IMG/VR virus record: IMGVR_UViG_3300037296_000160
Span: 1 to 53,674 of that record
Length of the DNA: 53,674 bases
Source of the DNA: a virus
Taxonomy: Duplodnaviria > Caudoviricetes
Strand: one strand, 5' to 3'
This document shows, one piece after another, positions 1 to 30,612 of this stretch. The position numbers and the translations under genes were made by a program. The notes beneath the pieces are model-generated. The model was not told the origin of the DNA, ran no database searches, and saw only the letters and a program-made list of their open reading frames with translations. How positions within the stretch are numbered: position 1 is the stretch's first letter; the number at the start of each line of letters is the position of its first letter.

Positions 1-426
1 TGGAAGGCGACCGCTACCTGTTCACCACCTATTCGCAGCTACAGGCCGTGAAGGGCAAAGAACCAGAGCGCCGCCCGCTTTTGCGCGCACTGGCAGGCAA
101 TGCCATGTTCCTGCTGGACGAAAGCCACGAGGCTGGCGGTCAGGCTGACACAGGCTGGAAAGACCCCGACGCGGTAGCCGACCGCGCGACGTTCATGCGC
201 GAAGTGCTGGCAATGGCAAAGGGGGCCGTGTTTTCGTCGGCCACCTACGCCAAGAACCCAACTGTCATGTCCCTCTACGCCAAGACGGACCTGTCACTCG
301 CCGTTGAAGATATCAGCGAACTAGGGGCCGCTATCGCGCTGGGCGGCGTCCCGCTGCAACAGGCCATCGCCAACATGCTTGTCGAAGCCGGTCAGTATGC
401 CCGCCGTGAACGCTCATTTGAGGGCG
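1..426. repeat. Terminal direct overlap, copy 1 (circularity / terminal redundancy)
   Basis: 1-426 matches 53249-53674 except at 62/53310, 170/53418, 191/53439 and 299/53547. Unit length is 53,248 bp. Confidence 0.97.
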
Positions 427-6630: not shown

Positions 6631-6656
6631 GAACAGCCCGACGCAGGAGCGCGGCG

Positions 6657-16105: not shown

Positions 16106-16536
16106 GTTATGGAATTGATCTGGAACTGGCCCACGCCGAGTTTGACCGAGGCGACCTGCGCGTCACGATGACATGGCTGTTCGAGGGGGCCGACCGGGCC
16201 ACCCCGCAGCCCTGCATGGTCCTGTCCCGCAGCGTCGAGCGCCAAGACCGCATGAAAATGCCCGTCGTCGTCACACTGGATAACGCTTGGCGTTGGGACC
16301 CCGCGACGTGGATCGAGTTTGACACCATGGAGCGCGCGTCTGGCTTTGCCGACAGCCTTGGTTTCGCGGTGAACAAACAGACCGTCATCACCATCGCGGG
16401 CCTGATTAACGACTACCTCGATGAATTGCTCACCATGCCCGTCGCCCCGCGCGTGAAGCAGACCAAACAAGCCGAAATGACGGTCATCAACCGCAACAGT
16501 GGCGAACAAATGGAAGTGGAGGTTTTGACGCGATGA
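16102..16536 (+). CDS. Hypothetical protein between terL and portal
   Basis: AGGAGG SD, ATGA coupling on both sides, coding-like codon bias. Confidence 0.8.
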   Translation: MSYGIDLELAHAEFDRGDLRVTMTWLFEGADRATPQPCMVLSRSVERQDRMKMPVVVTLDNAWRWDPATWIEFDTMERASGFADSLGFAVNKQTVITIAGLINDYLDELLTMPVAPRVKQTKQAEMTVINRNSGEQMEVEVLTR

Positions 16537-18782
16537 CAAGCATAGCTGTTGGGGAGAAGGTGCGCGAGTTTCGCAGCCTCTTGAACGAAACCCCCGAAGA
16601 TCAGGCGCAGCCGAACAAGCACGATAAGCACCTCGATACAGAGGAAGCCAAGGCGCTGCACCGCGAAATGATGGGCAGCTTTAGCCTTGAGCTGTCCCGG
16701 CAGGCCGCATCCCGCCGCCGCCGCGCCCGCGCAGAGGACTATTACCACGGCGTCCAGTTTACCGAGGCCGAGCGCCTTGAAATCGAGGGGCGCGGCCAGA
16801 CCGCGACCACGCTCAACATCATGGGGCCGTCGATTAACTGGATGCTGGGCACCGAGCGCCGCAACCGGGCTGACGGCAAGGTTCTGCCCCGCCGCAAGGA
16901 CGGACGCACCGACGCCGACTCCAAGACGCAGCTTTTGAAATACGTCGATGATTGCCACCACGCCGAAATGAAGAAATCGGCCGCATTTGCTGATGCGATC
17001 ATCACCGGGCTTGGCTGGCTGGAAACAGGCGTCCGCGATAGCGAAGCTGGCGGCGAACCTGTGTTCGTCGGCCACCCGGCGTGGCGGCAAATGGTCCATG
17101 ACAGCTTTGCCACAGAGTTGGATATGGGCGATGCGCGCTACATGTTCCGCGCCAAGTGGACGGACGTGAACATTGCGACGGCCATGTTCCCAGACCGCGC
17201 GCCAACGATCCGCGCCGCCGCGCTGCGCGACAACGGCATGTCGGGCGACGGCGGCATTGACGGCTGGGGCGATGACGCCATGGACAGCGTCGAGCAATTC
17301 GCCCTCGATACCCACGACTTTGGCTATGAGATTGCCGAGGCAATGCGCCCGCGTGTGCGGCTTATCGAGGCATGGACCCGCCGCCCGATGATGACGCCCT
17401 GCATGATCGGCGGCATGTTCGACGGCGAGATTTTCGACCCGCACAGCCACGGGCACGTCAACGAAGTCATCATGGGCAACGCGCGCGTCAAAGAGAAGCT
17501 GCGCAACCGGATGCAGGTTCACATTATGACGTCGGGCGGGCTGTTGCGGTCCCAGAACTCGCCCTATCGCCACAACAAGTTTCCATTCACCCCCGTCTGG
17601 GGCAACCGGCGCGCGTCTGACAACATGCCTTACGGCGTGGCTGATACGATGATCGACCTGCAAGACGACATCAACAAGCGCCAGATCAAAGCCACCTACA
17701 TTCTGAACACCAACAAGGTCGTGGCCTACGAGGGCAGCGTGTCCGACGTGGACGAGTTTCTTGAGGAAGTGCCGCGCCCTGACGGCGTGATCTGGATTAA
17801 GGAAGGCAAGCAAAAGCCTGATTTTAATGCAGATAAGGAGCTTGGGACGTCGCACCTTAACTCAATGTCTATGTCGATCGACATGGTTCAGCAGCTATCG
17901 GGCATCACTGACGAAAGCATGGGGCGCACCACCAACGCCACGTCAGGCCGCGCGATCAAGGCGCGTCAGGAGCAAGGGGCCATGACCACGGCCCACTACT
18001 ACGACAACTTTAGGTATGCCCTGCAAGTCCATGGCGAGAAACAGCTTTGCGTCTGTGAACAGTTTATCGACAAGGAAAAGCAATTTCGCATCGCCACCCC
18101 GCGCGGGGGCTTTGACTTTAAGACGGTGAACGAACCGGGCAACGCCGCAACGAACATCACCGCGTTTAAGGCTGACTTTCAGATGGGCGAGGAAGATTGG
18201 AAGGCCAGCAACCGGCAGGCGTCCGCTGACAGCTTTATCCAGATCATGTCGCAGCTTGCCCCGGCCAACCCGCAAGTGCTGACCTCGATCCTCGATCTAT
18301 TGGTAGACATGCTGGACGTGCCCTACGCCGAGGAAATCGCCTCCCGCCTGCGCCTGCAATTCAACATTGAAGACCCAGACGCCGACCCCAATGACCCGTC
18401 GCCGCAAGCCGTCGAACAGCGGGCCAAGAAGGAAGCCGCCGCAGCCGCAGCAGGCGAGGCCATGGAGATGCAGAAGGCCGCACAGCAAGCCGAAACCGAC
18501 AAGGCCACCGCCAGCGCCCGCGAAGCGCGCGCCAAGGCCGCACGGTCGGAAATCGAGGCGCAAAAGGAACTGTTGTCGATGGACCGTATCGCGTTCGACA
18601 ACATCAGCGTCATGCAAGCGCAGCGCGGCACCGCCGCGACCGCCGACGCCATGATCGAGGACGCCATCGCGCGTGTGAACGCCATGGTGCAGCCGCAGAC
18701 AGGGCAACCCCCTGCCCCTGCCCCCGATATGCCGCCCCCAGAGGCAGGCATGGACCCCGCAAGCCAACTTATCCCCGCATAA
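16533..18782 (+). CDS. Portal protein (podovirus type)
   Basis: 749 aa; DYYHGVQF..., DARYMFRAKW, FPFTPVWG.R....PYG...MIDLQDDINKR, SGRAIKARQEQG; coiled-coil C-terminus. Confidence 0.92.
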   Translation: MTSIAVGEKVREFRSLLNETPEDQAQPNKHDKHLDTEEAKALHREMMGSFSLELSRQAASRRRRARAEDYYHGVQFTEAERLEIEGRGQTATTLNIMGPSINWMLGTERRNRADGKVLPRRKDGRTDADSKTQLLKYVDDCHHAEMKKSAAFADAIITGLGWLETGVRDSEAGGEPVFVGHPAWRQMVHDSFATELDMGDARYMFRAKWTDVNIATAMFPDRAPTIRAAALRDNGMSGDGGIDGWGDDAMDSVEQFALDTHDFGYEIAEAMRPRVRLIEAWTRRPMMTPCMIGGMFDGEIFDPHSHGHVNEVIMGNARVKEKLRNRMQVHIMTSGGLLRSQNSPYRHNKFPFTPVWGNRRASDNMPYGVADTMIDLQDDINKRQIKATYILNTNKVVAYEGSVSDVDEFLEEVPRPDGVIWIKEGKQKPDFNADKELGTSHLNSMSMSIDMVQQLSGITDESMGRTTNATSGRAIKARQEQGAMTTAHYYDNFRYALQVHGEKQLCVCEQFIDKEKQFRIATPRGGFDFKTVNEPGNAATNITAFKADFQMGEEDWKASNRQASADSFIQIMSQLAPANPQVLTSILDLLVDMLDVPYAEEIASRLRLQFNIEDPDADPNDPSPQAVEQRAKKEAAAAAAGEAMEMQKAAQQAETDKATASAREARAKAARSEIEAQKELLSMDRIAFDNISVMQAQRGTAATADAMIEDAIARVNAMVQPQTGQPPAPAPDMPPPEAGMDPASQLIPA

Positions 18783-18803: not shown

Positions 18804-19652
18804 ATGGCAAACCCGCAGACACACTACGACGATCCGCCCATCAACGCCGAAGATGACGCCGAAATCGTCCTGACCGACGATGACCGCCGCCAGCTTACGC
18901 CAGCGGATATCGAAGCCCTGTCCGCTGTTGTGGATGCAGAGGTCATAGACGAGCAGCCCGCACCCGCGCCTGCCCCTGTGATCGATCAGCAGCCCGCCCC
19001 GGCCCCGGCACCGGCCACGGACTATAGCGCGGATATCGCTGCGCAGGATGCAGCTATGCGCGCGCTACGCGCAAGCTGGGACGACGGCGACGTGTCGGTT
19101 GATGACTACAACCGCCAGCAGGACGAATTGCAGGCCGCGCGCGATGAACTAATCACCGCCCGCGCTTTGCAGGAGGCTAACCCTGCCCCGGCCCAGCCCG
19201 AAGACAACGGCGGCGACCGGCAGGAAGACCCCGCCTTTGCCCTCGATGCGCAGAGATATGCGACCGCCTACCCCGAACTGTTCTCTGACGCGCACTTTAC
19301 CGCGTTCAACGCACTGTTCGAGCAAAACGACGCGCGGGCATCGAGCGCCAACCTCACCACCACGCAGCTACTTGAGAAGACGCACCGCGAGTATGCCGCA
19401 CTGGCCGAGGCACAGCATCGGCCATTGCAGGTATCCCTACCGGGCACCGGAGGCGTTGGTGGCCGCAAGGACGAAGTGCCGCCCAGCATTGCCGACGTGC
19501 CCGCGTCTGGTCTGGACGCGCACCAAGACCGCTTTTCGACCTTGGCAGCCCAGATCGACACGATGGACAACCCTGACGATATCGAGGCCATCTTGGCGAA
19601 GTTGCCCCCTGACCAACGCGATGCGTTCGCGTCATTTGGCGACGACGGATGA
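18804..19652 (+). CDS. Putative scaffolding protein
   Basis: Acidic, Pro/Ala-rich, helical; follows the portal; C-terminal helix (IEAILAKLPPDQRDAF). Confidence 0.65.
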   Translation: MANPQTHYDDPPINAEDDAEIVLTDDDRRQLTPADIEALSAVVDAEVIDEQPAPAPAPVIDQQPAPAPAPATDYSADIAAQDAAMRALRASWDDGDVSVDDYNRQQDELQAARDELITARALQEANPAPAQPEDNGGDRQEDPAFALDAQRYATAYPELFSDAHFTAFNALFEQNDARASSANLTTTQLLEKTHREYAALAEAQHRPLQVSLPGTGGVGGRKDEVPPSIADVPASGLDAHQDRFSTLAAQIDTMDNPDDIEAILAKLPPDQRDAFASFGDDG

Positions 19653-20044
19653 AGGTAAAACTCACCACCTTAACCGTCACTTTGAGCCGCGCAGCCGTGT
19701 TGCAGTTGCGCGGCTGCAACCTTTGCTACCTCGATAAGCAGGACGACGGCGGCACCGTTTTTGCGGTCAATCCGCAGCCCGACGTCGTCGTCAAGCATCA
19801 CCGCAAAGACCCCAAGACGGGCCTGCCCGAAACGGAAGGTGTGATTTTGGACGGCGTCACCATCGCCATTCAGATCGGTGACGCGATCACCACCAGCCAC
19901 GGCACTGGCCTAATCCGCGTCAAGCGGGGCACGTCTGCCCGCCCGACGTTCAAAGTCAGCGCGCCAGAGCATGACCGCATTACCGTCGTGCGCCGGGGGC
20001 AACCCGTCGGTGGACGCGCCAAAGAACTGGAGAACCAGCTATGA
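19649..20044 (+). CDS. Hypothetical beta-rich protein, possibly two tandem CsrA/RsmA-like domains
   Basis: Two ~50-aa halves with CsrA-like strand patterns: LTVTLSRAAVLQL...TVFAVNPQPDVVVKHHR and IAIQIGDAI...RPTFKVSAPEHDRITVVR. The CDS is likely real; the fold call is tentative. Confidence 0.45.
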   Translation: MKVKLTTLTVTLSRAAVLQLRGCNLCYLDKQDDGGTVFAVNPQPDVVVKHHRKDPKTGLPETEGVILDGVTIAIQIGDAITTSHGTGLIRVKRGTSARPTFKVSAPEHDRITVVRRGQPVGGRAKELENQL

Positions 20045-20340
20045 CCAGATTGCGCGAGGGCGTCATCGACCTCAATTTGAACGCGCCGGGGGGCGAGTGC
20101 AGCTATACCGTCAACCGTGCCGCGCTGGCCAAGAAGAACCTGCTAATCGACAAGCGGTATACCCGCGTCGTGCGCCTCAATAGCCCAGAGGAAGTGCAGC
20201 AGGCACTAACGAACGCGCAGCACAGCAAGGTTAGCAAAGACCCTTTGACCAAAGCCGTGGCGCAAAGCCTGACCAAAGCCCTGACGCTGGCCGTCAACGC
20301 CATCCAGAGCCACCAGAAGCATCAGGCGGCGGCGAAATGA
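20041..20340 (+). CDS. Hypothetical protein
   Basis: GGAG SD; coupled to both neighbours. Confidence 0.7.
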   Translation: MTRLREGVIDLNLNAPGGECSYTVNRAALAKKNLLIDKRYTRVVRLNSPEEVQQALTNAQHSKVSKDPLTKAVAQSLTKALTLAVNAIQSHQKHQAAAK

Positions 20341-20690
20341 GCGGTGACGAGCTGACAGACATGGCCGCTGTTCTGACCAAAGAGGGCGGGCCGAAAGGGA
20401 CAAAGAAGATCCCCATGAAGTCCGACCCCGGCGATCAAGAGAACATGGTGAAGATCAATAACGTCGCGGGCGAAGAACTGCGGCAATTCATCGAGCGATA
20501 TGAGCGCCTAGAGGCCGAGAAAAAAGACATAATGGAGGGCATGAAAGAGGTCATGGCCGAAGCCAAAGGCCGTGGCTACAACGTGAAGATACTTCGCAAG
20601 ATCATCGCCCTGCGCAAGCGCGACAAGGATGACTTGGACGAAGAAGAAGCGGTTTTGGAAATGTATATGGCCGCGTTGGGCATGTCCTAG
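20337..20690 (+). CDS. gapR: GapR/DUF2312 family nucleoid-associated DNA-binding protein
   Basis: VAGEELRQFIERYERLEAEKKDI...KEVMAEAKGRGYNVKILRKIIALRK...YMAALGM. Confidence 0.9.
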   Translation: MSGDELTDMAAVLTKEGGPKGTKKIPMKSDPGDQENMVKINNVAGEELRQFIERYERLEAEKKDIMEGMKEVMAEAKGRGYNVKILRKIIALRKRDKDDLDEEEAVLEMYMAALGMS

Positions 20691-21115
20691 TGACACCCGC
20701 CGCGCGCCAGCTTGCAAAAGCCGAGAAGGATGCGCGCGCCCGCGAGAAGCAGGTTAAGCGCGATGCGCGCGCCGCCACAGCCCCGGCCAACAAGTATGGG
20801 GCCAAGCGCACGGTCGTAGACGGCATAACATTCGACAGCAAACACGAGGCCCGCGTGTGGGGGCAGCTAGGCTATGCCGAGCGGTGCGGGCTGATACGCG
20901 ACCTCAAGCGGCAGGTGCCCGTGTTCCTGATAGGGCAGCACGGCCCCCTACTGGCCCGCAACGGCAGACCTATGCGCCTGACGTTCGACTTTACCTACAT
21001 CGACGCGGAAACCGGCCACCTGATCCACGCCGACGCCAAGGGCAAGCCAACCCCTGACTACGAGGTCCGCAAGGCCGTCGTGATCGCCATGGGACTGCAC
21101 GTCCTCGAACTGTAA
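20690..21115 (+). CDS. DUF1064-family PD-(D/E)xK nuclease-like protein
   Basis: NKYGAKRTVVDGITFDSKHEA...LKRQVP...DFTY...DAKG. Confidence 0.85.
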   Translation: MTPAARQLAKAEKDARAREKQVKRDARAATAPANKYGAKRTVVDGITFDSKHEARVWGQLGYAERCGLIRDLKRQVPVFLIGQHGPLLARNGRPMRLTFDFTYIDAETGHLIHADAKGKPTPDYEVRKAVVIAMGLHVLEL

Positions 21116-21141
21116 ACAACGCCGCCCAGGTGCTTACCAAA

Positions 21142-21312
21142 ATGACCGACAAAGACCTTGATACACTGGCCGATACCATCACCGCAGCCCTATCGCGCTG
21201 CAAGACGGTCAAAGAGGTTGTGGACACCGCAAACCACTACCGGGCCGACGTGGAACACATGAAGACGGCCAGCCGCACCCGCGCCATCCATCTAAGCAAT
21301 CTGCGCAGCTAG
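21142..21312 (+). CDS. Small hypothetical protein
   Basis: MTDKDLDTLADTITAALSRCKTVKEV...; helical and protein-like. Confidence 0.5.
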   Translation: MTDKDLDTLADTITAALSRCKTVKEVVDTANHYRADVEHMKTASRTRAIHLSNLRS

Positions 21313-21339
21313 CAGATCAAGATGCTGGGTAAAGAGGCA

Positions 21340-21488
21340 CAGCCCGAACAAGCACAAATGCAGATTTAATAAGATGCTTAGAAAAAAAGATTTGCAAATA
21401 CGCTGATTGACGCTAAAACCCTGTGTGTGGTCGAAACCATTAGACCACGATGCGACGAAACGTCTGCACATAGCCACAGGAGGCAACA
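21340..21488 (+). promoter_or_regulatory. Putative promoter of the accessory/early operon
   Basis: AT-rich; TGCAGAT at 21359, TGCAAAT at 21393, TTGACG at 21407, ACCAC-type octamers at 21436-21460. Confidence 0.5.
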
Positions 21489-21782
21489 GTGACCGAGCAG
21501 CAAGTCCCTTCAATGTTCGTAGCCAAGCGCACCATCCAACTGGACGGACGCAAGCTATACGACGTCGCCCTAGTGTTCGTGATCGACAAGGTCATGCCGT
21601 CAGGGATCACGCTTTGCCACCCGTCCACCACCTACATGACCCGCGTAAGCCCGGTTGAGCGCATCGCCCACAACATCACCGGGACAGTCAAGTTTCGCCC
21701 CGACGCGGACGGACGCCTGCGCCAGATCGAGCGCCGCAAGATCGACCCGAACGGCTGGGCACAAGTCAAAACCACAACCTAA
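21489..21782 (+). CDS. Hypothetical protein
   Basis: AGGAGG SD before the GTG start. Confidence 0.75.
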   Translation: MTEQQVPSMFVAKRTIQLDGRKLYDVALVFVIDKVMPSGITLCHPSTTYMTRVSPVERIAHNITGTVKFRPDADGRLRQIERRKIDPNGWAQVKTTT

Positions 21783-21833
21783 TCACCACAGGCGACCGCA
21801 CAGGTCTGCCGACACGCCACAGGAGGCACCCCC

Positions 21834-22196
21834 ATGACAATCGCTTTCACATTCAACGACACCGACCGCCCTGACCTTGGCGCTTGCAGCCCCTTTGGCG
21901 TCATCGAGACGGTTTCGCACTTTGCATCCACCCGGCACATCATGGCCGACCAGATAACCTTTGTGGCGTCTGAAACAGGCTGCGGCTACCACCTGATGCC
22001 CGACGCGCTGGCTATGGTCGATGAACGCCTGCGCGGCCTGCGTGGCTACGAGGCCAACTCGCCATGGTTCGATACAGGTCTGGGCCAAGCGATTATTGTC
22101 GTCACCTTCCAAAGCATGTTCAGCGCCCAAGCGATCAAGGAAGCCTTTGCGCGCCTGATCTGGCTCGATGAAGCAACAGCGGAGTGGGCGGCATGA
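21834..22196 (+). CDS. Hypothetical protein (weak resemblance to DUF7007-type mobile-element proteins)
   Basis: AGGAGG SD; SPFG...ITFVASETGCGYHL. Confidence 0.7.
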   Translation: MTIAFTFNDTDRPDLGACSPFGVIETVSHFASTRHIMADQITFVASETGCGYHLMPDALAMVDERLRGLRGYEANSPWFDTGLGQAIIVVTFQSMFSAQAIKEAFARLIWLDEATAEWAA

Positions 22197-22417
22197 GCGG
22201 CAACCTTCGCAAAACCATCGAGCGCGCAGCCATCGAGCGCGACTACGGCAGCGCCGTCGCCCAGACCAAAGACGCGCTGGGCGTGGTCAAAGAAACGCGC
22301 GCCGTATTGGTCCTGCATCACATGGATCAAGAAGATTGGTTCCGCCTGCCGGTCCCACTGCGCCGCCGCCTGCTGGGCGACTACGCCGCAACAGAAATCC
22401 GCTACCAACTAGACTAG
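22193..22417 (+). CDS. Hypothetical protein
   Basis: ATGA overlap with the upstream gene; GGAG SD. Confidence 0.7.
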   Translation: MSGNLRKTIERAAIERDYGSAVAQTKDALGVVKETRAVLVLHHMDQEDWFRLPVPLRRRLLGDYAATEIRYQLD

Positions 22418-22426
22418 GAAAACCAC

Positions 22427-22942
22427 ATGACCGTGAAACCACCCCTCAAGTTTCTACAATGCGCGCTGGGCTTTCAACACGCCACGGAAGGCATGACCGT
22501 AGCGGACGCACACCGCGTTCGTATCGGCCTGCTGGACCATATGGCAAGCACCACGGGCGCAGTCTTATCCCCTATGCGCGTGGCCGTGCCAAAGGACGTG
22601 CAAAGCCTGCCTGCGTCCATGACGTTCGCCTCTAACGTCGCAGATGACGTAGACACATGGCTTGTGCCAATGCCTGCATGGGCGACGGCGCGCGACAAGT
22701 TTGACGAAATCATGCGCCTTTCCCCGGCTGACATGCCCCCAAACAGCGACCACCTGTCCCTATTGCTCGATACCGTCCTGTTCCGCCTGCGTGAGCCGTC
22801 ACGGGCGGCAACATGGGAGGCGATAGGGGTGCCAGCACCGCGAGGCCGCGCCATGCTGGGTGCCCGCTCTGACAGTGTGACGTGGCCGACCTTCTTCACC
22901 CTGCGCGTCTACGCCTTTGGCGACGAAATGGAGACACGGTAA
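22427..22942 (+). CDS. Hypothetical protein, possible C-terminal HTH-like region
   Basis: AGGA SD; operon-packed. Confidence 0.7.
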   Translation: MTVKPPLKFLQCALGFQHATEGMTVADAHRVRIGLLDHMASTTGAVLSPMRVAVPKDVQSLPASMTFASNVADDVDTWLVPMPAWATARDKFDEIMRLSPADMPPNSDHLSLLLDTVLFRLREPSRAATWEAIGVPAPRGRAMLGARSDSVTWPTFFTLRVYAFGDEMETR

Positions 22943-23421
22943 TGGCGAACTGGAAAACAATGACCACCGCCAAATCCCTGCCCCTGCACCCCAAGCGGGA
23001 GCGGGAGATAACCGAGTGGGCCAAGCGGCACGGATATGACGACGAGGCCATCGCGGCGACCATCGAGGCGCATAAGAACGTGATGACCTACATGAACAAC
23101 ACCTACGTTGCCACGGTCCTCAAGGCCGAGGTCTGGGGGGAGGGCTGGCCCGAAATGGCCCAACTGTCCATTCGCCGCATAGACCGCAAGGTCATCCACG
23201 ATTGGCGCGCGCTGCAACAGATCAAGTCCGATATCTTTGGGGCCAACGCCGAGGGCGTAGAACTCTACCCCGCCGCCGACCGCGTCGTAGATACCGCGAA
23301 CAGCTACCATATCTTTGTGCCCCTCGATCCTAGCATCCATTTCCCCTTTGGCTGGCGCACTGGCCTGCGCGCGGACGATGCGGCACAGAACGAGCGCCCC
23401 GGCGCAGGGGGTGAACTATGA
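22942..23421 (+). CDS. DUF7694-like phage protein
   Basis: LSIRR.D....HDWRALQQIK.DIFG...EGVELYP...RVVDTANSYHIF pattern; TAATG coupling. Confidence 0.7.
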   Translation: MANWKTMTTAKSLPLHPKREREITEWAKRHGYDDEAIAATIEAHKNVMTYMNNTYVATVLKAEVWGEGWPEMAQLSIRRIDRKVIHDWRALQQIKSDIFGANAEGVELYPAADRVVDTANSYHIFVPLDPSIHFPFGWRTGLRADDAAQNERPGAGGEL

Positions 23422-23714
23422 CCACCATTGCCCTGATCGCCATAGCGGCCCTTGCCTTCGCGCTGGGCGTGATGTGGGAGCGTGACCGCCCGCGCCGCCG
23501 CGCCTTGGCCCGGTTCCGCAACAATGCACCGCTGCGCCGCGCCATGCAGACAGAGGCGTCCCAATGGAACGGACGCCAGCTTGAGCAAATCAAAGCGATG
23601 AACCGTTGCGCAGCGGGCAACTTGCCCCCGCTTGAGGTCCACTACACCCGGTTTCCGCCGAACTGGCACGAGACAATCGGCCAGCACGGCACCAACGAGC
23701 AGACACAAGGATAA
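23418..23714 (+). CDS. Hypothetical protein with N-terminal TM helix
   Basis: MTTIALIAIAALAFALGVMW followed by a basic stretch. Confidence 0.65.
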   Translation: MTTIALIAIAALAFALGVMWERDRPRRRALARFRNNAPLRRAMQTEASQWNGRQLEQIKAMNRCAAGNLPPLEVHYTRFPPNWHETIGQHGTNEQTQG

Positions 23715-23719
23715 AACCA

Positions 23720-24496
23720 ATGAACGACGAAACCACGAAACCAGTAACCGCATTGCCGCCCGCAGACTTCAACGCCATGGCGCTGGAAGCACTGACAGCC
23801 GCGTGTGACCCGGCCCGCGTCCAAGAGATTGTGGCGAAGAAGATCACCGAGACGGTGGATCGCGCCATTGAGGACGCCACGCGCAGCTACTCGCCCTTTG
23901 GTCAGGCACTAGAGGGGAAGCTGAAAGACGCGCTGTCCATCCAGAACCTCAATCTGCCAAGCTACAACACGATCATCTGTTCCATGGTGCAGAAGGCCGT
24001 AGAGGCCAACGTGTCCGAATTGATAGCGGGCCGCTTGAAGACAGACCTCGATGCTATGCTGGCCGTCGCGCCCAAGACGATCAAGCTGTCAGAGATTGTG
24101 ACCTCGATGCGATCTGAACACGAGGGGAATGACTACGGCCCGGTCGTGACCTGCCACGTTGACCAAGACGGCGGCGATGATGACTTCTGGGGGCGGAACT
24201 GGACGATCTGGCTTGATGACCGCGAACACTACGATTGGGCCAGCCGCAAGGATGCGTCGGTAAGGATCGCCGTGCGCCACGGTATCCGCAAAAACATGGC
24301 CGAAGCTGGGCACCCCGAACACGTCGGCACCATCAGCGCGGTCTATGAAAACGGCGGTGTGCTGGCAGATATCAAGAAGGGCTTCACCAGCCGCAAGAAC
24401 TACGGCTTGGCCAATACCCTGCTGGGCTACTACGCCGCTGAAACCGTTATCGTGGTCGATGAAGACGACGTTGTAACCAGCGTGGGGGATTACTGA
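23720..24496 (+). CDS. Hypothetical phage protein
   Basis: 258 aa, AAGGA SD, coding-like bias. Confidence 0.8.
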   Translation: MNDETTKPVTALPPADFNAMALEALTAACDPARVQEIVAKKITETVDRAIEDATRSYSPFGQALEGKLKDALSIQNLNLPSYNTIICSMVQKAVEANVSELIAGRLKTDLDAMLAVAPKTIKLSEIVTSMRSEHEGNDYGPVVTCHVDQDGGDDDFWGRNWTIWLDDREHYDWASRKDASVRIAVRHGIRKNMAEAGHPEHVGTISAVYENGGVLADIKKGFTSRKNYGLANTLLGYYAAETVIVVDEDDVVTSVGDY

Positions 24497-24822
24497 TGCC
24501 CGCCGCGATCAAGATGAACAGCATGGTCAAAGCTGTAGACCTTGCCACAGGCAAAGAGAGCGAGAGCGTTGTAAGCTGGGGGGTGTTGCCGCCCGCGCCA
24601 GACCGGTGCCAAACCTGCGCCGTGGACCACACGCCAGACCAGCCGCATGACGCGGGTTCGCTTTTCTACCAATTCACGTTCGGCAATGAGCATGGCCGCG
24701 CCCCGACGTGGACCGACGCCATGGCGCATTGCACCGCCGCTGTGCGCGACGAGTGGACCGACAACCTGCGCGCCATGGGCGTGGATATCCCAAAGATGGA
24801 GGGAAACGACGATGCAAGCTGA
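24496..24822 (+). CDS. Hypothetical protein with a putative metal-binding CxxC/H motif
   Basis: CQTCAVDH...PH...YQF....GR.PTW.DAMAHC. Confidence 0.7.
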   Translation: MPAAIKMNSMVKAVDLATGKESESVVSWGVLPPAPDRCQTCAVDHTPDQPHDAGSLFYQFTFGNEHGRAPTWTDAMAHCTAAVRDEWTDNLRAMGVDIPKMEGNDDAS

Positions 24823-25957
24823 CCCGATAGCCCAAGCCACGATAACCACCAAGGACGCGCGCCGCATTGCCGCCGCCATGGGGGGTGTCATCGAGCGCCG
24901 CAACACGATCCCGGTGCTGGGGTGTCTGCGCTTCAAGATCGCCAAGGGCGGTATCAGCGTTACCGGTACAGACCTCGATATACGGATGACCCTGCACATA
25001 GAGGCCGAGACGTCGGGCGAAGCTGTGATCCTGATAGACGCCGCCCGGTTTGCTGGCTTTGCTGGCGCTGGGCTGGGCGACATAGTGCTAAAGGTCATCC
25101 CCCCGGCCAAGGGGTCACAATCGCAGATGAACGTCATCGAGTTATCGAGCGGCGATATCACCCTGCAACTGCTGGACCGCCTGCCACCAGAGGACTTTCC
25201 GACGTTCAACCAGCACTTGAAGGGCGCAAAGGCTTTCCCGGCCACGCAAAGCGACCTGCTGCGCGTCTTCAAGTTGGCAAGCCACTGCATCAGCACCGAG
25301 GAAACCCGCTACTATCTGAACGGCATATACCTGTCCGAGAAGCCAGACGGCACCACCCTGCGCGGCGTGGCGACCGACGGGCACCGCTTGGCCTGCATCG
25401 ACACAGGCGTAGAGACGCAAGGCGGGATGGATAAGACCGAGGGCAAGGGGGCGATCCTGCCCCGCAAGACGGTAGACCTGCTGAAAAGCCTGATGACCGA
25501 GGGGGCCAACGATCCTGTCAACATGCGGCTAACCAACACCCACTGCGCGTTTGTCTGGGAAGGTGTCGAGATAGATACCAAGATGATCGACGGCACCTAC
25601 CCAGACTATACCCGCGTGATCCCCAAGGGGGATGAAACAGGCCGCGTCCAGCTATCCACGGACACGGTGCGCCGGGTTATGAGCATTGGCCGCGCGCTGG
25701 GCGGGGGCACGTCCGTCGCCTGCGCCCTCGATCTGGACGCCAACACCATGACCATCACAGGGATGGAAGGGGAGAAGGTGGCCGCGCCTATGAGCGCAAC
25801 AGGCAAGGGCCGCATAGGCTTCAACTTGAAGTATCTGGCCCAACTGGCGCGCGCCGTCCCGAACATAACGATGCAGGTCATCGAGGCCAACGGTCCCGCG
25901 CGTTGCTTTGGTGACGATCCGCTTGCCATGTTCGTCCTGATGCCGATGCGGGTTTAA
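24812..25957 (+). CDS. dnaN: DNA polymerase III beta sliding-clamp homologue
   Basis: IERRNTIPVL, GTDLDI, ISTEETRYYLNG, VATDGHRLA, ILPRKTV, IDGTYPDY.RVIP, IGFN.KYL, VLMPMRV. Confidence 0.93.
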   Translation: MQADPIAQATITTKDARRIAAAMGGVIERRNTIPVLGCLRFKIAKGGISVTGTDLDIRMTLHIEAETSGEAVILIDAARFAGFAGAGLGDIVLKVIPPAKGSQSQMNVIELSSGDITLQLLDRLPPEDFPTFNQHLKGAKAFPATQSDLLRVFKLASHCISTEETRYYLNGIYLSEKPDGTTLRGVATDGHRLACIDTGVETQGGMDKTEGKGAILPRKTVDLLKSLMTEGANDPVNMRLTNTHCAFVWEGVEIDTKMIDGTYPDYTRVIPKGDETGRVQLSTDTVRRVMSIGRALGGGTSVACALDLDANTMTITGMEGEKVAAPMSATGKGRIGFNLKYLAQLARAVPNITMQVIEANGPARCFGDDPLAMFVLMPMRV

Positions 25958-25959
25958 CG

Positions 25960-26373
25960 ATGACCCGTGCGCGTGTGACGGCCACAAGACCAGCCGACGA
26001 GAACAACCAAGTGCTGACCGTTGTAGGGGGAGGCGGTGGCTATCGCCGCACACCCTGCCCCGGTTGCCCGTGGCGCACAGAGAACGACGGCGATTTTCCG
26101 GCCGAGGCGTTCAGACATAGCGCAGGGACCGCCTACGACATGGCGCAATCGACCTTTGGTTGCCACGAGAGCGGGGCAGAGAAGCCAGCAACGTGCGCCG
26201 GGTTCCTGCTGCGCGGTGCCGCCCACAACTTCAAGGTTCGCACGGGTGCCCGCATAGAGGGGCTATACAACGACGTTCACGCCGACGGCGCGGACCTGCA
26301 CGACAGTTACAGAGCAATGGCAGAGGCAAACGGCGTCGATCCAGATGACCCCGTTCTTGCCCCCTGCCGGTAA
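25960..26373 (+). CDS. DUF6283-like Cys-rich protein
   Basis: PCPGCPWR...FPAEAF...TFGCHES...CAGFL. Confidence 0.75.
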   Translation: MTRARVTATRPADENNQVLTVVGGGGGYRRTPCPGCPWRTENDGDFPAEAFRHSAGTAYDMAQSTFGCHESGAEKPATCAGFLLRGAAHNFKVRTGARIEGLYNDVHADGADLHDSYRAMAEANGVDPDDPVLAPCR

Positions 26374-26384
26374 GGAGAAGCCGC

Positions 26385-26594
26385 ATGAGCGACAAACCAA
26401 TGCCAGAGGCGGACTACATCGCAGCCTTCACCGCTGAAATGGTCCGCGTAGGGGGGGAGACGTTCGCAGATGGATCGTCAATCCGCGAGTATGCCCAAGA
26501 GGTAGCGCCCACCTACTACCGTGACCCTATGACCAGAGAGGACGGACCAGAAGCCGCCGTAGAGGCTGACATGGACTGTTGGGAGGGAGCATAA
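26385..26594 (+). CDS. Small acidic hypothetical protein
   Basis: AAGGAG SD; ends PEAAVEADMDCW. Confidence 0.75.
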   Translation: MSDKPMPEADYIAAFTAEMVRVGGETFADGSSIREYAQEVAPTYYRDPMTREDGPEAAVEADMDCWEGA

Positions 26595-26836
26595 TGCTAG
26601 ACACGACAGACAACCGGGCGCTGGGCACTATGGAGTCGCAGCAAACCGTAGACCGCGTGACCGTTGAAACGATAGCAGGCAGTAACGAGGTGTCAGTCTA
26701 CCAAGAACACGCTGCTGGCGGTGTCCAGCCGCCGGGGGAGGTGACGCTGTTTGGTATGAGAGACTTGCGCGCGCTGCACTTCCTGACAGGCGAGTTGATC
26801 CGAGACGCCGAGAACGTAGCGAGGGCGCATCCATGA
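26594..26836 (+). CDS. Hypothetical protein
   Basis: GGAG SD; TAATG coupling. Confidence 0.65.
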   Translation: MLDTTDNRALGTMESQQTVDRVTVETIAGSNEVSVYQEHAAGGVQPPGEVTLFGMRDLRALHFLTGELIRDAENVARAHP

Positions 26837-27129
26837 GCGATCTAGTCGAGACGAGTGAGGACATTGCAGTCAAGCTGCGCCTATGGGACGCCACCAAGCG
26901 CGAACTGTTTAGGTTTGCTGACCGATATGCCAAGGCCGCGATACCGGGCAAGAAGCTGTCACCAGAGCAAGAGGACGTCCTGTTTGCCGTAGGGCAGAAG
27001 AAATACCCGCTGTCCCTTGTGGTAGCCATAGCGGACAACATGGGGCTGGATGGGACGCTACCTGCAAACGTAGAGGAAAAGCTGACCATGTATCGCCACA
27101 AGCTGCGCCTGTTCGTGCCGGGGCGGTAA
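26833..27129 (+). CDS. Hypothetical protein
   Basis: ATGA coupling; last gene before the terminator. Confidence 0.7.
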   Translation: MSDLVETSEDIAVKLRLWDATKRELFRFADRYAKAAIPGKKLSPEQEDVLFAVGQKKYPLSLVVAIADNMGLDGTLPANVEEKLTMYRHKLRLFVPGR

Positions 27130-27151
27130 GCCACCCCCTAGCGCACCAAAC

Positions 27152-27191
27152 AAAAAGCCCGCCCCGTGATCCACAGGGCGGGCTTAACTTT
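27152..27191. terminator. Probable bidirectional intrinsic terminator
   Basis: AAGCCCGCCC/GGGCGGGCTT stem with an A-tract on the left and a T-rich tail on the right, between convergent genes. Confidence 0.75.
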
Positions 27192-27286
27192 GTCTGGCGC
27201 GCTGGGCGGGCCTTTACGATGCTAGGTTTACGTCGCACAAAACGTTGCCATTTATCGTCAAGCAGTTTCAGCATCCTTGTCGGTCC

Positions 27287-27493
27287 TTAAAATGATTGCA
27301 TATACCAAGTGTCGCCGGGTTCGGCGCAACAGTGAATGTCTGTGTGTTTTTCTGGGTCGTATCCGCCGTCTACTTTGTAGAGCAGGCCGTGCTTGATAGC
27401 GATTTCTTGCAGGTCGCCAGCGTCAATGTCATGGCCTTCCGGCCACTCACTAAGCAAATCCTTGGCGAAGGCTTCAAAGTCTGGCTTTTGCAT
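27287..27493 (-). CDS. Small hypothetical protein
   Basis: 68 aa, AAGGA SD; divergent from the resolvase. Confidence 0.7.
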   Translation of the reverse strand: MQKPDFEAFAKDLLSEWPEGHDIDAGDLQEIAIKHGLLYKVDGGYDPEKHTDIHCCAEPGDTWYMQSF

Positions 27494-27534
27494 GTCTGCG
27501 GTCCTTGTGTGAGTGTTCGCTTCTGATGCCCACC

Positions 27535-27620
27535 TTACACAATCTTGCAGTTGTGTAAATACATAATCGCATACGGTTACTGTATGACTTATCTTGACAC
27601 CATAGGTGCGCCGTGCGTAA
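27535..27620. promoter_or_regulatory. Putative res site / resolvase promoter
   Basis: Inverted repeats TTACACAA-N8-TTGTGTAA (27535-58) and CATAC..GTATG (27570-86); TTGACA at 27594. Confidence 0.5.
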
Positions 27621-27628
27621 TGTTCGGC

Positions 27629-28381
27629 ATGATGAATTTACCCGATTTCAGCGGCAACCTTTACGGCTATGCGCGCGTGTCCACCGAGGACCAGAACCTA
27701 AACCTTCAGCTTGACGCCTTACGGGCGGCAGGCATCCCGGATAGCCGCATCTTCACAGAGAAGGTGTCTGGCACGTCTAAGAAGCGGCCCAAGCTGGAAC
27801 TCGTGCGCAAGATCATGCGCGAGGGTGATGCGCTGTGCGTCTGGCGTCTGGACCGCGTAGGGCGGTCTGTGGTGGCCGTGGTAGAGTTTGTCGAAGGTCT
27901 TAGCGCTGACGGCATCTTGTTCCGGTGCCTGACTGAACCAATCGACACTACCACACCGACCGGAAAGCTGATGCTGCACATGATGGCGGCGCTGGCAGAG
28001 TTCGAGCGCAACATGATCGCTCAGCGGACGCGGGCCGGAATGGACGCGGCACGGTCGCGGGGCGTCAAGATGGGGCCGAAACACCGCATCTTGGATTGTC
28101 CCAAGCGGCTGGCGCGCTTCATTGAGTTGTGGGCCGATGGGCGTATCCCGTCCGGCGACATGAGCGCAAATGATGTGTGGGCCGATCTGAATACAGTGCC
28201 GTCCAAGCTGCCAGAGATGAAGGCACAAAGCAGCTATAGCAACTGGAAGGCACGTCTATTCGCGGGGTTTGAAGCATCGCTAGATCAGGCGATTAGCAAG
28301 GGCGACGACAAGGCCGCGAAGGTAAAGCCGCTGTTCCTGCAATGGCGCAAAGGTATCCTAGAGCAGAAAGGCAAAAGCTAA
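27629..28381 (+). CDS. Small serine recombinase (resolvase/invertase family)
   Basis: YGYARVSTEDQ, RPKL, GD.L.VWRLDR.GRS, IDTTTPTGKLM..MMAALAEFER; too short for a large serine integrase. Confidence 0.93.
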   Translation: MMNLPDFSGNLYGYARVSTEDQNLNLQLDALRAAGIPDSRIFTEKVSGTSKKRPKLELVRKIMREGDALCVWRLDRVGRSVVAVVEFVEGLSADGILFRCLTEPIDTTTPTGKLMLHMMAALAEFERNMIAQRTRAGMDAARSRGVKMGPKHRILDCPKRLARFIELWADGRIPSGDMSANDVWADLNTVPSKLPEMKAQSSYSNWKARLFAGFEASLDQAISKGDDKAAKVKPLFLQWRKGILEQKGKS

Positions 28382-29202
28382 TGCGTGGATATACCCTGCC
28401 AGCCGGAAACGTGCAGATTAGCTTTAGCGGCGGGCGCACGTCTGCATACATGCTGCACCAGATACTTGCGGTAAACGGCGACCTGCCAGAACGAGTGCAA
28501 GTCGTGTTTTCAAACACCGGGCGCGAAATGGACGGGACGCTTGATTTTGTGCAAGAGTGCGCCGAACGCTGGAATATTCGTGTGGTATGGGTTGAGGATG
28601 CCAAACGGGGCGGTGACGCTCTTTTTGACGTGGTGTCGCACAATTCGGCCAGCCGTTTCGGTGAACCTTTCAAGCGGCTAATAGAGCGCAAGAAAGCCTG
28701 CCCAGATCAGTCTAAGCGGTTCTGCACAGAGCATCTAAAGATCCTGCCCGCTCGGCGTTATCTTATATCGTTGGGCTGGAAGGAGTGGACGAACGCAGTA
28801 GGCATCCGTGCCGATGAACCGCACCGTCTGAAACCATCCCCCGACAAGCGGGTTAGGAAGTGGTATCCGCTGGAAGATGTAGACAAGCCTGCGGTGATGC
28901 GGTTTTGGGCCGCGCAACCTTTCGATCTGCGCATTGAGCCAGGTTATGGGAATTGCGATGGCTGTTTTATGAAGTCAGAGGCGCAGCTTGCGGCGCTATG
29001 CCGTGACTACCCTGATCGGGCTGAATGGTGGGAAGATATGGAGCGCAAGGCGTCTGCTTTGACCGCGAGTGCTGGCGGCGCGCGGTTCCGTGATCAATTC
29101 ACGCGGGCGCAACTGCGCGACACTGTAGATAGGCAGGGCGATTTCCTTTTTTCCACCGAAGAAGGCTGGTGCCAAAAGAACCACGGCGAATGCACCGGAT
29201 GA
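28381..29202 (+). CDS. PAPS-reductase-family / adenine-nucleotide alpha-hydrolase (PP-loop, Cys-rich)
   Basis: ISFSGGRTSAYM, FSNTGRE, RFCT..LK, GIRADE, GNCDGCF. Confidence 0.85.
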   Translation: MRGYTLPAGNVQISFSGGRTSAYMLHQILAVNGDLPERVQVVFSNTGREMDGTLDFVQECAERWNIRVVWVEDAKRGGDALFDVVSHNSASRFGEPFKRLIERKKACPDQSKRFCTEHLKILPARRYLISLGWKEWTNAVGIRADEPHRLKPSPDKRVRKWYPLEDVDKPAVMRFWAAQPFDLRIEPGYGNCDGCFMKSEAQLAALCRDYPDRAEWWEDMERKASALTASAGGARFRDQFTRAQLRDTVDRQGDFLFSTEEGWCQKNHGECTG

Positions 29203-29242
29203 AACCGAACAACCCACGAAGGAGCACCCAATACCGCCTGAC

Positions 29243-29272
29243 AGGCCCGTAGCGCGCCGCTGCGGGCCTTTC
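29243..29272 (+). terminator. Hairpin terminator after the resolvase-PAPS unit
   Basis: AGGCCCGTAGCG...CGCTGCGGGCCT-TTCG. Confidence 0.55.
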
Positions 29273-29353
29273 GCCTGTCTAAGCACCCGCTGGGGGCCGA
29301 CCTTGTAAAAACCTGACATTTACGCGCCTACGCACGAGGCAGGTCAAACCCTG

Positions 29354-29502
29354 TTGATCGAGGGCGTGGGCTTGTGGTATCAACCACGTCAACGGCAGAG
29401 CGCAGGAGCGCCGCCGACCGCGCAGGAGCGCGACACACACCCCCCATTCGACTGCGGTGTAGGATGCACCCGGTTCATTCCTTTAATGAACGAGGTATCC
29501 CT
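29354..29502 (+). promoter_or_regulatory. Capsid-operon promoter and structured leader with three AGGA-loop hairpins
   Basis: TTGATC (29354) and TGGTATCAA; GCGC-AGGA-GCGC (29400-11), CGCGC-AGGA-GCGCG (29419-32), GGTGT-AGGAT-GCACC (29456-70); GTTCATT/AATGAAC hairpin before the GAGGT SD. Confidence 0.7.
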
Positions 29503-30612
29503 ATGTCTTCCACCCAACTGGCTTTTGGCGACCCGAAGGCCGCTGTTCGTTGGTCCGCTAACCTTGCGCTGGACGTGAACCACGCTGGCTTCTGGTCCAC
29601 CCGCTTTGTCGGCAAAGGCTCGCAATTCGCTATCGAGGAAAAGACCGAACTCGAAGGCGAAGCTGGCGACACGATCCACTTCGACCTGCTGGTCAACCTG
29701 ACCGAAGAACCCACCTTTGGCGACGCCGAGGTTGCGGGCACTGCCGAGAGCATGAAGCACCGTTCTGACCGCATCCACATCGACCAGATGCGCCACCCGG
29801 TGTCTGCGCCCGGTCGTATGGGCCGCAAGCGTAGCGTCCACAACTTCCGCAAAGACGCGAAGATGCTGCTCAAGGACTACTGGGCCAAGTGGAAGGACGA
29901 AGTCACGTTCATCTACATGTCTGGCAACCGGGGCATCAACGAAGACTTCATCATGCGTCAGGGCTGGGAAGGCTTTGCCGAGAACAAGCTGCGCGCGCCT
30001 GACCGTGCCCACCTGATGTATGGCGGCGATGCGACGTCCAAGGCGTCCCTGACCGCTGACGACAAGATGGGCCGCAATGTCATCGAACTGGCGGAAACCA
30101 AGTGCCGCATGATGCGCGCCACGGATCGCAGCGTTGCCAACATGCAGCCGCTGAACATCGACGGGGGCAAGCACTACGTTTGCGTCATGTCGCCGTTCCA
30201 AGAGCATGACATGCGCCAAGACGTCGGCCCGTCGGGCTGGCTGACCGTTCAGCGTGACGCAGCCGCCGCAGAGGGCAAGAACAACGCCATCTTCAAGGGC
30301 GGTCTGGGCATGGTGAAGAACGTCGTTCTGCACAGCCACGAGAACGTCGTCCGCATGGATGACTACGGCGTCACTGGCGACGTCAGCGCCGCCCGCGCCC
30401 TGTTCCTTGGCGCACAGGCCGGTGTCTGCGCACACGGCACCAAGGATAGCCGCAAGTATCTGTGGCACGAGGAAGAAGTCGATAAGGGCAACAAGCCCGA
30501 AATCACGGCGGGCACGATCTGGGGCATCAACAAGTCCCAATTCAACGGCAAGGACTTTGGCTGCATCAGCATCGACACCGCCTGTTCCGACCCGAACAGC
30601 ACCGCAGCCTAA
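29503..30612 (+). CDS. Major capsid protein, N4-gp56/DUF4043 family
   Basis: FGDPKA..RWS..L, ELE.EAGDTI.FDL, IDQ.RH.V, GGDATSK, IFKGGLGM..NVVLH, ARALFLGAQA, DFG.ISIDT. Confidence 0.92.
   Translation: MSSTQLAFGDPKAAVRWSANLALDVNHAGFWSTRFVGKGSQFAIEEKTELEGEAGDTIHFDLLVNLTEEPTFGDAEVAGTAESMKHRSDRIHIDQMRHPVSAPGRMGRKRSVHNFRKDAKMLLKDYWAKWKDEVTFIYMSGNRGINEDFIMRQGWEGFAENKLRAPDRAHLMYGGDATSKASLTADDKMGRNVIELAETKCRMMRATDRSVANMQPLNIDGGKHYVCVMSPFQEHDMRQDVGPSGWLTVQRDAAAAEGKNNAIFKGGLGMVKNVVLHSHENVVRMDDYGVTGDVSAARALFLGAQAGVCAHGTKDSRKYLWHEEEVDKGNKPEITAGTIWGINKSQFNGKDFGCISIDTACSDPNSTAA

Follow-up and report, generated by a model that had tools for sequence, protein, structure and literature searches.

Several bacterial mRNA leaders are regulated by proteins of the CsrA/RsmA family, among them those of glgC and cstA in Escherichia coli, hag in Bacillus subtilis and hcnA in Pseudomonas; canonical CsrA requires GGA, and the consensus obtained by SELEX (systematic evolution of ligands by exponential enrichment) is RUACARGGAUGU. 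Here we analyze the 5' leader of the major capsid gene in a stretch of phage DNA, IMG/VR virus record IMGVR_UViG_3300037296_000160 (53,674 bp, completeness estimate 94%; this whole stretch is called the window below), in which three copies of an AGGA motif precede the capsid start codon. The locus resembles the CsrA/RsmA leaders in having GGA in short 5'-leader hairpin loops, in the spacing of its sites, which lie tens of nucleotides (nt) apart, and in the presence of a CsrA gene in its relatives, and it differs from them in that the first G of the GGA is variable, the element is predicted to pair with the start region and the window gives no sign of a CsrA gene. The GGA-class element of the related phage BcepIL02, CAGGAUGU, is itself similar to the SELEX consensus. 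We think it rather probable that the leader holds a conserved element that masks the capsid start and has been tripled in the window, with a trans-acting factor setting the balance between masked and open forms.

The leader shares repeated AGGA-loop hairpins with the sponge small RNAs (sRNAs) CsrB, CsrC and RsmX/Y/Z, and departs from them in having only three, placed in an mRNA leader without its own terminator, one of them occupied by predicted pairing, and in having no Rfam match. In another known type of leader, the ribosome-binding site is sequestered and becomes accessible through a protein or an alternative transcript, as in the activation of E. coli ymdA by CsrA and in the early transcripts of T4 e, soc and I-TevI. 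As in these, an upstream segment is predicted here to pair with the region between the Shine-Dalgarno (SD) sequence and the AUG, giving a leader that would be closed by default and would have a competing local hairpin, whereas here the masking segment is a capsid-gene motif conserved across a whole phage group. A further parallel, by analogy only, may be drawn with the CsrA-FliW-flagellin (Hag) system of B. subtilis, where a CsrA gene is likewise coupled to the gene of an abundant self-assembling protein with sites in its leader; a FliW-like partner and a capsid feedback are not part of the findings here.

As for CsrA in phages, passages of PMC9144972 and PMC10269572 present csrA as a "moron" gene of unknown role and mention one CsrA peptide detected in JC1 virions, a passage of PMC7366521 lists csrA in 30 phages and notes that chromosomal csrA is lacking in Burkholderia hosts, and a passage of PMC11879866 reports that knock-down of a phage csrA led to smaller plaques, its authors stating that the role had previously been untested. 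The leader element is not mentioned in the passages of PMC9144972, PMC10269572 and PMC11879866, and our literature search, which left supplements and subscription journals outside its reach so that an earlier mention is possible, returned no description of it; the start-masking leader element is apparently undescribed.

The capsid gene and its leader

The window is a podophage of the group related to Bcep22 (Lessievirus), with which it shares the capsid family. Its capsid protein has 1089 homologues at an expectation value (E) <=1e-20, the three nearest in that search being 72, 70 and 63% identical, and it is 51-56% identical in amino acids (aa) to those of 80 viral loci gathered by an alignment search, which was used instead of a single-protein locus search in viral contigs that had returned no relative. 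Matches to the window at the DNA level occur in 69 phage records and are confined to the capsid coding sequence, and relatives from the window's own clade were not found in a collection of genome contigs. The sole closer relative compared, L100, has a capsid with 78% aa identity over 232 residues. Every aligned homologue begins at ATG 29503, which rules out as capsid start an in-frame ATG at 29464-29466, inside the loop of the third motif, in a frame open from 29374. The features of the leader are as follows:

29354 to 29383, + strand: putative promoter, TTGATC (29354-59), an 18-nt spacer and the extended -10 TGTG-G-TATCAA (29373-83), read from the sequence and kept in L100
29400 to 29411, + strand: motif copy 1, GCGC-AGGA-GCGC, tetraloop hairpin near the mRNA 5' end (P 0.97-0.98; isolated dG -6.3)
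29419 to 29432, + strand: motif copy 2, CGCGC-AGGA-GCGCG, hairpin with an exact 12-mer repeat (P 0.34-0.37 in a 142-nt context; isolated dG -9.0)
29456 to 29470, + strand: motif copy 3, GGUGU-AGGAU-GCACC, 47 nt before the ATG and within the relatives' range of 33-58 nt
29473 to 29491, + strand: hairpin 4, GUUCAUU-CCUUU-AAUGAAC, 7 bp, inside the predicted masking helix (P 0.82-1.0; repeat search)
29492 to 29505, + strand: translation initiation region, SD GAGGU (29492-96), spacer AUCCCU and AUG (29503-05), with the putatively masked segment GGUAUCC (29494-29500)
29503 to 30612, + strand: major capsid protein gene (N4-gp56 / PF13252 family, Pfam E 8.4e-49)

A preliminary description of the window had listed three AGGA hairpin motifs, a fourth hairpin, the SD GAGGT and ATG 29503, and all of them are present at these positions. 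Its sigma70-like promoter fared less evenly, as a sigma-70 consensus scan called no site at the capsid leader, while the extended -10 TGTG-G-TATCAA is kept in L100 (TTGCCC-18-TGTG-G-TATGAA); from this putative extended -10, transcription is predicted to start at about 29390-29391. The three AGGA motifs are spaced 20 and 37 nt, and in all 53,674 nt of the window only 29400 and 29420, 20 nt apart, carry the exact 12-mer GCGCAGGAGCGC. Copies of this 12-mer with one mismatch are found at 6641-6652 (ACGCAGGAGCGC), after a terminator-like site, where its AGGAG lies 7 nt before ATG 6658 and gives a hairpin holding a possible SD, and at 49634, inside coding-looking sequence.

Conservation of the element in related phages

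We compared the 130 nt upstream of each capsid start, in 67 non-redundant leaders with enough sequence (L060, with its start off the locus, and L036, with too little upstream sequence, were left out), and counted as the element any match to at least 9 of 11 fixed positions with a gap allowed; this gapped scan replaced a rigid 13-mer motif scan, which missed the 12-nt form. One copy of GCGCA-NGA-(N)-GUGC is present 33-58 nt before the ATG in 62 of the 66 non-redundant relatives, 57 of which match 10 or 11 positions, and the other four have variant CAUGGA hairpins. Extra copies occur only in the window among the 67 leaders scanned, and its copy 1 corresponds to the single element of the relatives in sequence as well as in its place behind the -10 (for example GAGCGCAGGAGCTGCC in L040). 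Phages of alpha-, beta- and gamma-proteobacteria share a nearly invariant 5' arm, GCGC, and A-N-G-A. Among the 62 elements, 26 have GGA as loop triplet, 25 have UGA and 11 have AGA, and conservation of the loop in relatives, whose failure the preliminary description had named as grounds for refuting its idea, holds for N-G-A and not for GGA. In the local hairpin columns of a MAFFT alignment, used for these columns only as it misaligned the 3' ends, 88.3% of cells are paired and four carry a double change, including the U-A of the window.

Ahead of the element, at a short and fairly constant distance, is a promoter-like motif; judged by eye, it is TTGCAA-17-GATAAT in some clades and an extended -10, (A/T)TGTGGTAT or ATATGGTAT, in others, and the TGTG-G-TATCAA of the window is of the latter type. 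Closer to the start, GGA occurs within -26..-4 in 49/67 leaders and CA-N-GA in 29/67 (7.8 when shuffled), counts to be read knowing that the SD itself looks alike. A second, SD-proximal CA-N-GA site was rejected as a general feature, being present in only those 29 leaders and confounded with the SD; the SD of the window, GAGGU, has no GGA. Rfam gave no match at gathering score in the whole window, and at E<=10 the segment 29250-29560 gave two unrelated matches at chance level (E 8-9), neither of them a Csr/Rsm sRNA.

L100 retains all three copies, the first with 11 of 12 positions (one stem pair lost), the second with 12 of 12 and the third with its U.G changed to C-G. It also keeps the extended -10 and has a start region, GAGGTATCCC, identical to that of the window, whereas the spacers between motifs have diverged, copies 1 and 2 lying 22 nt apart instead of 20 nt. 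The sequence of hairpin 4 is not kept, its place being taken by a weaker GG..CC stem, and the genes upstream differ from those of the window and lie on the other strand.

Judged from the window alone, the hairpin cluster is only mildly unusual. Of the 38 GGA-loop hairpins on the + strand, three fall within 80 nt nowhere but in the leader, and such a cluster was reached in 38 of 200 Markov simulations, which had a higher total of hairpins (62.9, standard deviation 7.9, vs 38). The leader folds with a z of -1.28, a stability equalled or exceeded by 17 of 200 shuffles. These figures would suit an origin by chance, in which an SD-like AGGA was locally duplicated in GC-rich sequence without function, but the retention of three copies in L100 amid diverged spacers and of the element in 62 of 66 relatives makes this a very remote prospect. 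The weight we place on the leader comes from this conservation and not from the statistics of the window.

Pairing of the element with the capsid start

The loop and 3' arm of the element are complementary to 8-10 nt between the SD and the AUG, with the AUG itself included in the UGA class, and in most relatives' leaders the complementary runs are contiguous over 6-13 bp. Element and start vary together, as seen in the matched pairs GGATGTGC/GCACATCC, AGATGTGCT/GGCACATCT, CATGAGTGC/GCACTCATG, GGACGCG/CGCGTCC, GGAGCTGCCT/GGGCAGCTCC and GGAGTGTG/CACACTCC. Across 35 element classes, the cognate duplex has a mean of -12.72 kcal/mol, compared with -9.16 (standard deviation 0.44) when start regions were swapped, the cognate mean being reached by 0 of 20000 permutations, and with -6.29 for shuffled start regions. 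This element-centred test took the place of a first duplex test with leaders split at -23 (cognate -21.36 vs -17.14), which was confounded by local hairpins across the cut.

Of 46 unique leaders, 31 have a helix of at least 6 contiguous bp that includes G7-A8, and a table of their pairs has two to three Watson-Crick types at positions 6, 9, 10 and 11: position 6 has G-C in 13 leaders, U-A in 11 and A-U in 1, and position 9 has U-A in 10, C-G in 10, G-C in 2 and U.G in 2, with no mispair. Taken together, the sequence comparisons indicate that the pairing of element and start is conserved through compensatory change. Partition-function folding of 63 leaders from the element to +30 gave at least 5 expected element-start base pairs in 55 of them (median 10.9), no local hairpin above P 0.5 in any, and a median unpaired probability of 0.22 over -14..+3. 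The long-range helix masking the start, and not the small hairpin, is thus predicted to be the dominant structure of the full leader.

Covariation of this kind could also arise if the motif were a DNA-level site, an operator for a DNA-binding regulator lying just downstream of the promoter, with the complement at the start codon, and the one found upstream of the promoter in one clade, being the same site inverted. The motif does lie at about +10 to +45 of the promoter, its stem sequence is conserved rather than covarying, and copies evolving in concert would mimic covariation. In addition, the alpha-group 12-mer GCGCATGAGTGC occurs four to five times per genome on both strands, compared with zero to one for the reversed control (G001-G003, the genomes behind L015, L011 and L013), and 15 of 62 leaders have an inverted copy beside the promoter. 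Such a site would not explain why the partner is fixed to the AUG (-10..-1) while its distance to the element varies, nor why the paired part of the element or its flanks differs from clade to clade (L010, L020, L024), as RNA pairing would; moreover, the motif is not palindromic, the spacing of copies 1 and 2 changes between the window and L100, and G.U is tolerated more than A.C (19 to 11). We regard DNA-level sites as an improbable account of the element.

The inverted copies form a pattern of their own. In a clade without an adjacent CsrA gene, a perfect reverse complement of 10-14 nt of the element lies beyond a TTGCAA-17-TATTTA promoter, some 74-85 nt upstream of the element; the leaders with such a far-side copy are L002, L005, L007-L009, L011-L013, L015, L016, L025, L034, L045, L051 and L068. 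The copy co-varies with the element (TCA/TGA, TCC/GGA, TCT/AGA) and was found in 15/62 leaders and in 0/62 of a control stretch. It could free the capsid start in read-through transcripts only, or be a DNA-level inverted repeat. Among the alpha-group 12-mers, one (L090 961-972) overlaps the ATG of an open reading frame (ORF) whose N-terminus looks integrase-like by eye.

Predicted folding of the window leader

In the predicted ensemble of the window leader, copy 3 pairs with the start region around hairpin 4: its GGAU (29462-65) with AUCC (29497-29500), P 0.82-0.90, and its ACC (29468-70) with the GGU of the SD, P 0.36-0.52. The extended arms of hairpin 4 (29468-79 / 29485-96) run into the SD. 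The local hairpin of copy 3 has P 0.00, its conformers being 3.2 kcal/mol worse than the masked fold, and the SD bases G-G-U have unpaired probabilities of 0.28, 0.00 and 0.04. Folding thus points to copy 3 as the start-masking arm, the upstream segment complementary to the region from SD to AUG. For copies 1 and 2, which are not complementary to the start region, free hairpins are predicted. Of the three AGGA loops that the preliminary description took to be hairpins, the first two are accordingly displayed (P 0.98 and 0.37) and the third is not (P 0.00), as it pairs with the start.

CsrA-family genes in the phage group

The gene directly before the major head gene of BcepIL02 is gp49, annotated as a CsrA-like regulator (PF02599, E 9.5e-8). 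A hidden Markov model (HMM) iterated from this protein detected a CsrA-like ORF upstream of the capsid gene in 60 of the 80 loci, and most of these ORFs end 65-155 nt before the capsid ATG, directly ahead of the leader, with five non-redundant cases at 450-900 nt. The usual gene order in relatives is portal, an acidic protein of ~300 aa, CsrA, leader and capsid. A profile of 39 of the proteins (A3) aligns with solved CsrA/RsmE over its whole length and gap-free (E 6e-14), a basic residue being aligned to the Arg of ..VHR... Five phages of the group that lack an adjacent copy were tested, and all five carry a CsrA gene at another genomic position (E 5e-10 to 2e-12).

This association makes CsrA control of the capsid leader plausible in the phage family, judging by gene neighborhood and leader sequence. 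The CsrA-target leader proposed in the preliminary description gains from the upstream gene and from the conserved element, and loses in that GGA is not conserved and copy 3 is not displayed. The CsrA step itself has findings to contend with: GGA is absent from 36 of 62 elements, loop classes are mixed inside protein subfamilies (by eye), and the window has no recognizable CsrA, PF02599 giving nothing in six frames at E<=1 and profile A3 nothing at E<=10. Both the loops without GGA and the lack of a recognizable CsrA gene in the window suggest that more than canonical CsrA recognition is involved.

On a more specific and speculative proposal, which is unlikely to be right as a whole, the CsrA proteins of Bcep22-like and related podophages would be dedicated regulators of capsid translation that read the A-N-G-A hairpin and open the masked start or, with a second SD site, close it. 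This would couple the capsid to the portal-scaffold operon, as a counterpart of CsrA-FliW-flagellin, and the clade of the window would have lost CsrA, tripled the canonical AGGA element and borrowed host CsrA/RsmA or an FHA-like protein encoded in the CsrA slot.

The ORF in the CsrA slot of the window

In the window, the portal gene (16533-18782) is followed by a gene for an acidic, scaffold-like protein of phrog_8246 (18804-19652), a further ORF, ~9.4 kb of other genes, the leader and the capsid gene. The ORF in question is:

19649 to 20044, + strand: ORF named CsrA-like by the preliminary description (P0001, 131 aa), in the CsrA slot after the scaffold-like gene

Its sole Pfam match at E<=10 was DUF5659 at 0.07, with no PF02599. 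BLASTP against BcepIL02 gp49 gave E 0.58, the phage-CsrA HMM gave E 0.45, BcepIL02 gp48 showed no similarity, and a word-index homology search matched only the ORF itself. Weak similarity to CsrA came from phmmer, which reached the CsrA-like ORF of L075 at E 4.4e-4 among 4858 ORFs, and from hhalign, with probabilities of 21.5% and 28.5%, the latter for profile A4 against A3 (E 6e-4) across the CsrA core. A HMMER scan of 1.8 billion representatives yielded one real homologue, P0124; three other matches were discounted as repeat proteins (Sushi, PKD).

The AlphaFold model, built from 2 sequences, is a single 11-strand beta sandwich with a pLDDT (predicted local distance difference test) of 80.2. 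Its best VIA-align matches are FHA domains, from Z 8.0 (EssC FHA) down to 5, values that can reflect common arrangements, in a search that runs by chain and could miss a CsrA half. Neighbours of the Atlas model are FHA clusters at TM 0.52-0.55, the CsrA cluster not being among those listed, and Foldseek of the model against PDB returned nothing at E<=0.001. A tandem "single-chain CsrA dimer" was considered and dropped, as the N-terminal and C-terminal halves gave no alignment with each other and the N-terminal half matched A3 at a probability of 0.15%. From these models the protein looks FHA-like, and homology to CsrA is improbable; its designation as a phage CsrA-like protein is not supported, in view of the missing Pfam and six-frame signal, the weak profile similarity and two FHA-like models.

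These results bear on the mechanism first suggested for the locus, in which the AGGA hairpins would be a CsrA target array or a CsrB/RsmZ-like sponge titrating the product of this ORF and timing the late genes. Three AGGA motifs with stem potential, the place of the ORF in the relatives' CsrA slot after the phrog_8246 gene and its faint phmmer and hhalign similarities speak for it. They have to be set against the lack of a CsrA signal in the ORF or in six frames, its distance from gp49 in BLASTP, its FHA-like models, a third AGGA that is predicted to be paired and a GGA that relatives do not conserve. The sponge in particular is unsupported, since the three sites are inside an mRNA leader running into the capsid coding sequence, not in a separate sRNA, and have no Csr/Rsm match in Rfam. 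We give little credence to this array or sponge mechanism. Overall, the interpretation in the preliminary description is right in part for the phage family and goes wrong in its details for the window.

Other features of the window

Upstream of the capsid promoter lies one further feature:

29240 to 29279, + strand: terminator-like nested inverted repeat GACAGGC...GCCTGTC, found by repeat search, without a T-run after it

This terminator-like region also holds a direct repeat, CCGCTGCGGGCC / CCGCTGGGGGCC, spanning 29257-29298 with the copies 30 nt apart. The ~9.4 kb of small genes on the same strand (20041-29202) split the portal/scaffold module from the capsid gene in the window, unlike the relatives, in which the capsid gene is within a few hundred bases of the preceding module. 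These genes encode Holliday-junction-resolvase-like and processivity-factor-like proteins (PHROGs), a serine recombinase and a PAPS-reductase-like protein, and appear replication- or recombination-like. No tRNA genes were found in the window. At its left end, 48-6482 is an ORF of 2144 aa; a passage of PMC11879866 describes in phage PTXU04 a "polyvalent protein" of 2,198 aa together with a csrA homologue.

Discussion

The results describe the leader that precedes the major capsid coding sequence in the mRNA of a Bcep22-like podophage, with three copies of an element that is single in relatives. According to the reading we favor, the capsid start would be masked by default through the loop and 3' arm of the element, a role taken in the window by the third copy, whose GGAU..ACC would pair with GGU-AUCC around hairpin 4. 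The choice between masked and open start is probably tipped by a trans-acting factor that reads the hairpin form; we infer such a factor because the 5' arm and A-N-G-A are not needed for the pairing and yet are conserved, and because the clade of the window keeps two extra free copies. As the closed state appears to be the default, we lean toward opening, that is activation, as the sign of the regulation. The best candidate for the factor in relatives would be the CsrA-family protein encoded just upstream. In the window, copies 1 and 2, 20 nt apart, may be extra landing sites for the factor, a 5' stabilizer or both, and the factor could be host CsrA/RsmA, an unrecognized phage protein or none, several candidates being kept because the window has no recognizable CsrA gene.

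If there were no factor, the leader would act purely in cis, setting mRNA stability and a capsid translation that is fixed at a low level or depends on temperature or on ribosomes, with hairpin 1 as 5' stabilizer, the masking helix as a brake and the neighbouring CsrA doing another job. The masking helix is indeed predicted without any factor, a start at ~29391 with an extended hairpin 1 would leave only ~2 unpaired 5' nt, non-GGA loops are common, and the window seems to be CsrA-less yet retains the architecture. Pairing alone leaves unexplained the near-invariant 5' arm GCGC and A-N-G-A, and the two extra copies of the window clade pair with nothing in the start region; permanent masking would also be odd for the most abundant virion protein. 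On balance, we find a leader acting only in cis rather unlikely.

Several observations weigh against a start-masking element under the control of a factor. In the window, the masking helix has only 4+3 bp, with a bulge, the element-start duplex of -10.4 ranks 6 of 35, and copies 1 and 2 are supported by two sequences only, the window and L100; the leader's folding score, given above, is also unexceptional. Among the relatives, 8 of 63 leaders pair differently, through the 5' flank of the element and a second helix. The permutation test ignores the relatedness of the classes, and although a capsid tree requires 6 or more changes of the loop base, it offers only 1-2 well-supported independent contrasts (4-5 over all branches), too few for a sign test to reach significance. 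Finally, the preference for G.U over A.C is only the 19 to 11 already mentioned, with which DNA-level selection remains compatible, and the repeated alpha-group 12-mers point the same way.

Phage CsrA homologues are widespread, and a leader element next to the CsrA gene in most relatives gives them a concrete, testable target. If the link to CsrA is true, it would explain the presence of a "host-type global regulator" inside a head-morphogenesis module, and capsid assembly would gain a post-transcriptional checkpoint. Whether or not CsrA has a part in it, the element is a conserved structured RNA, without a match in Rfam, that is common to phages of alpha-, beta- and gamma-proteobacteria.

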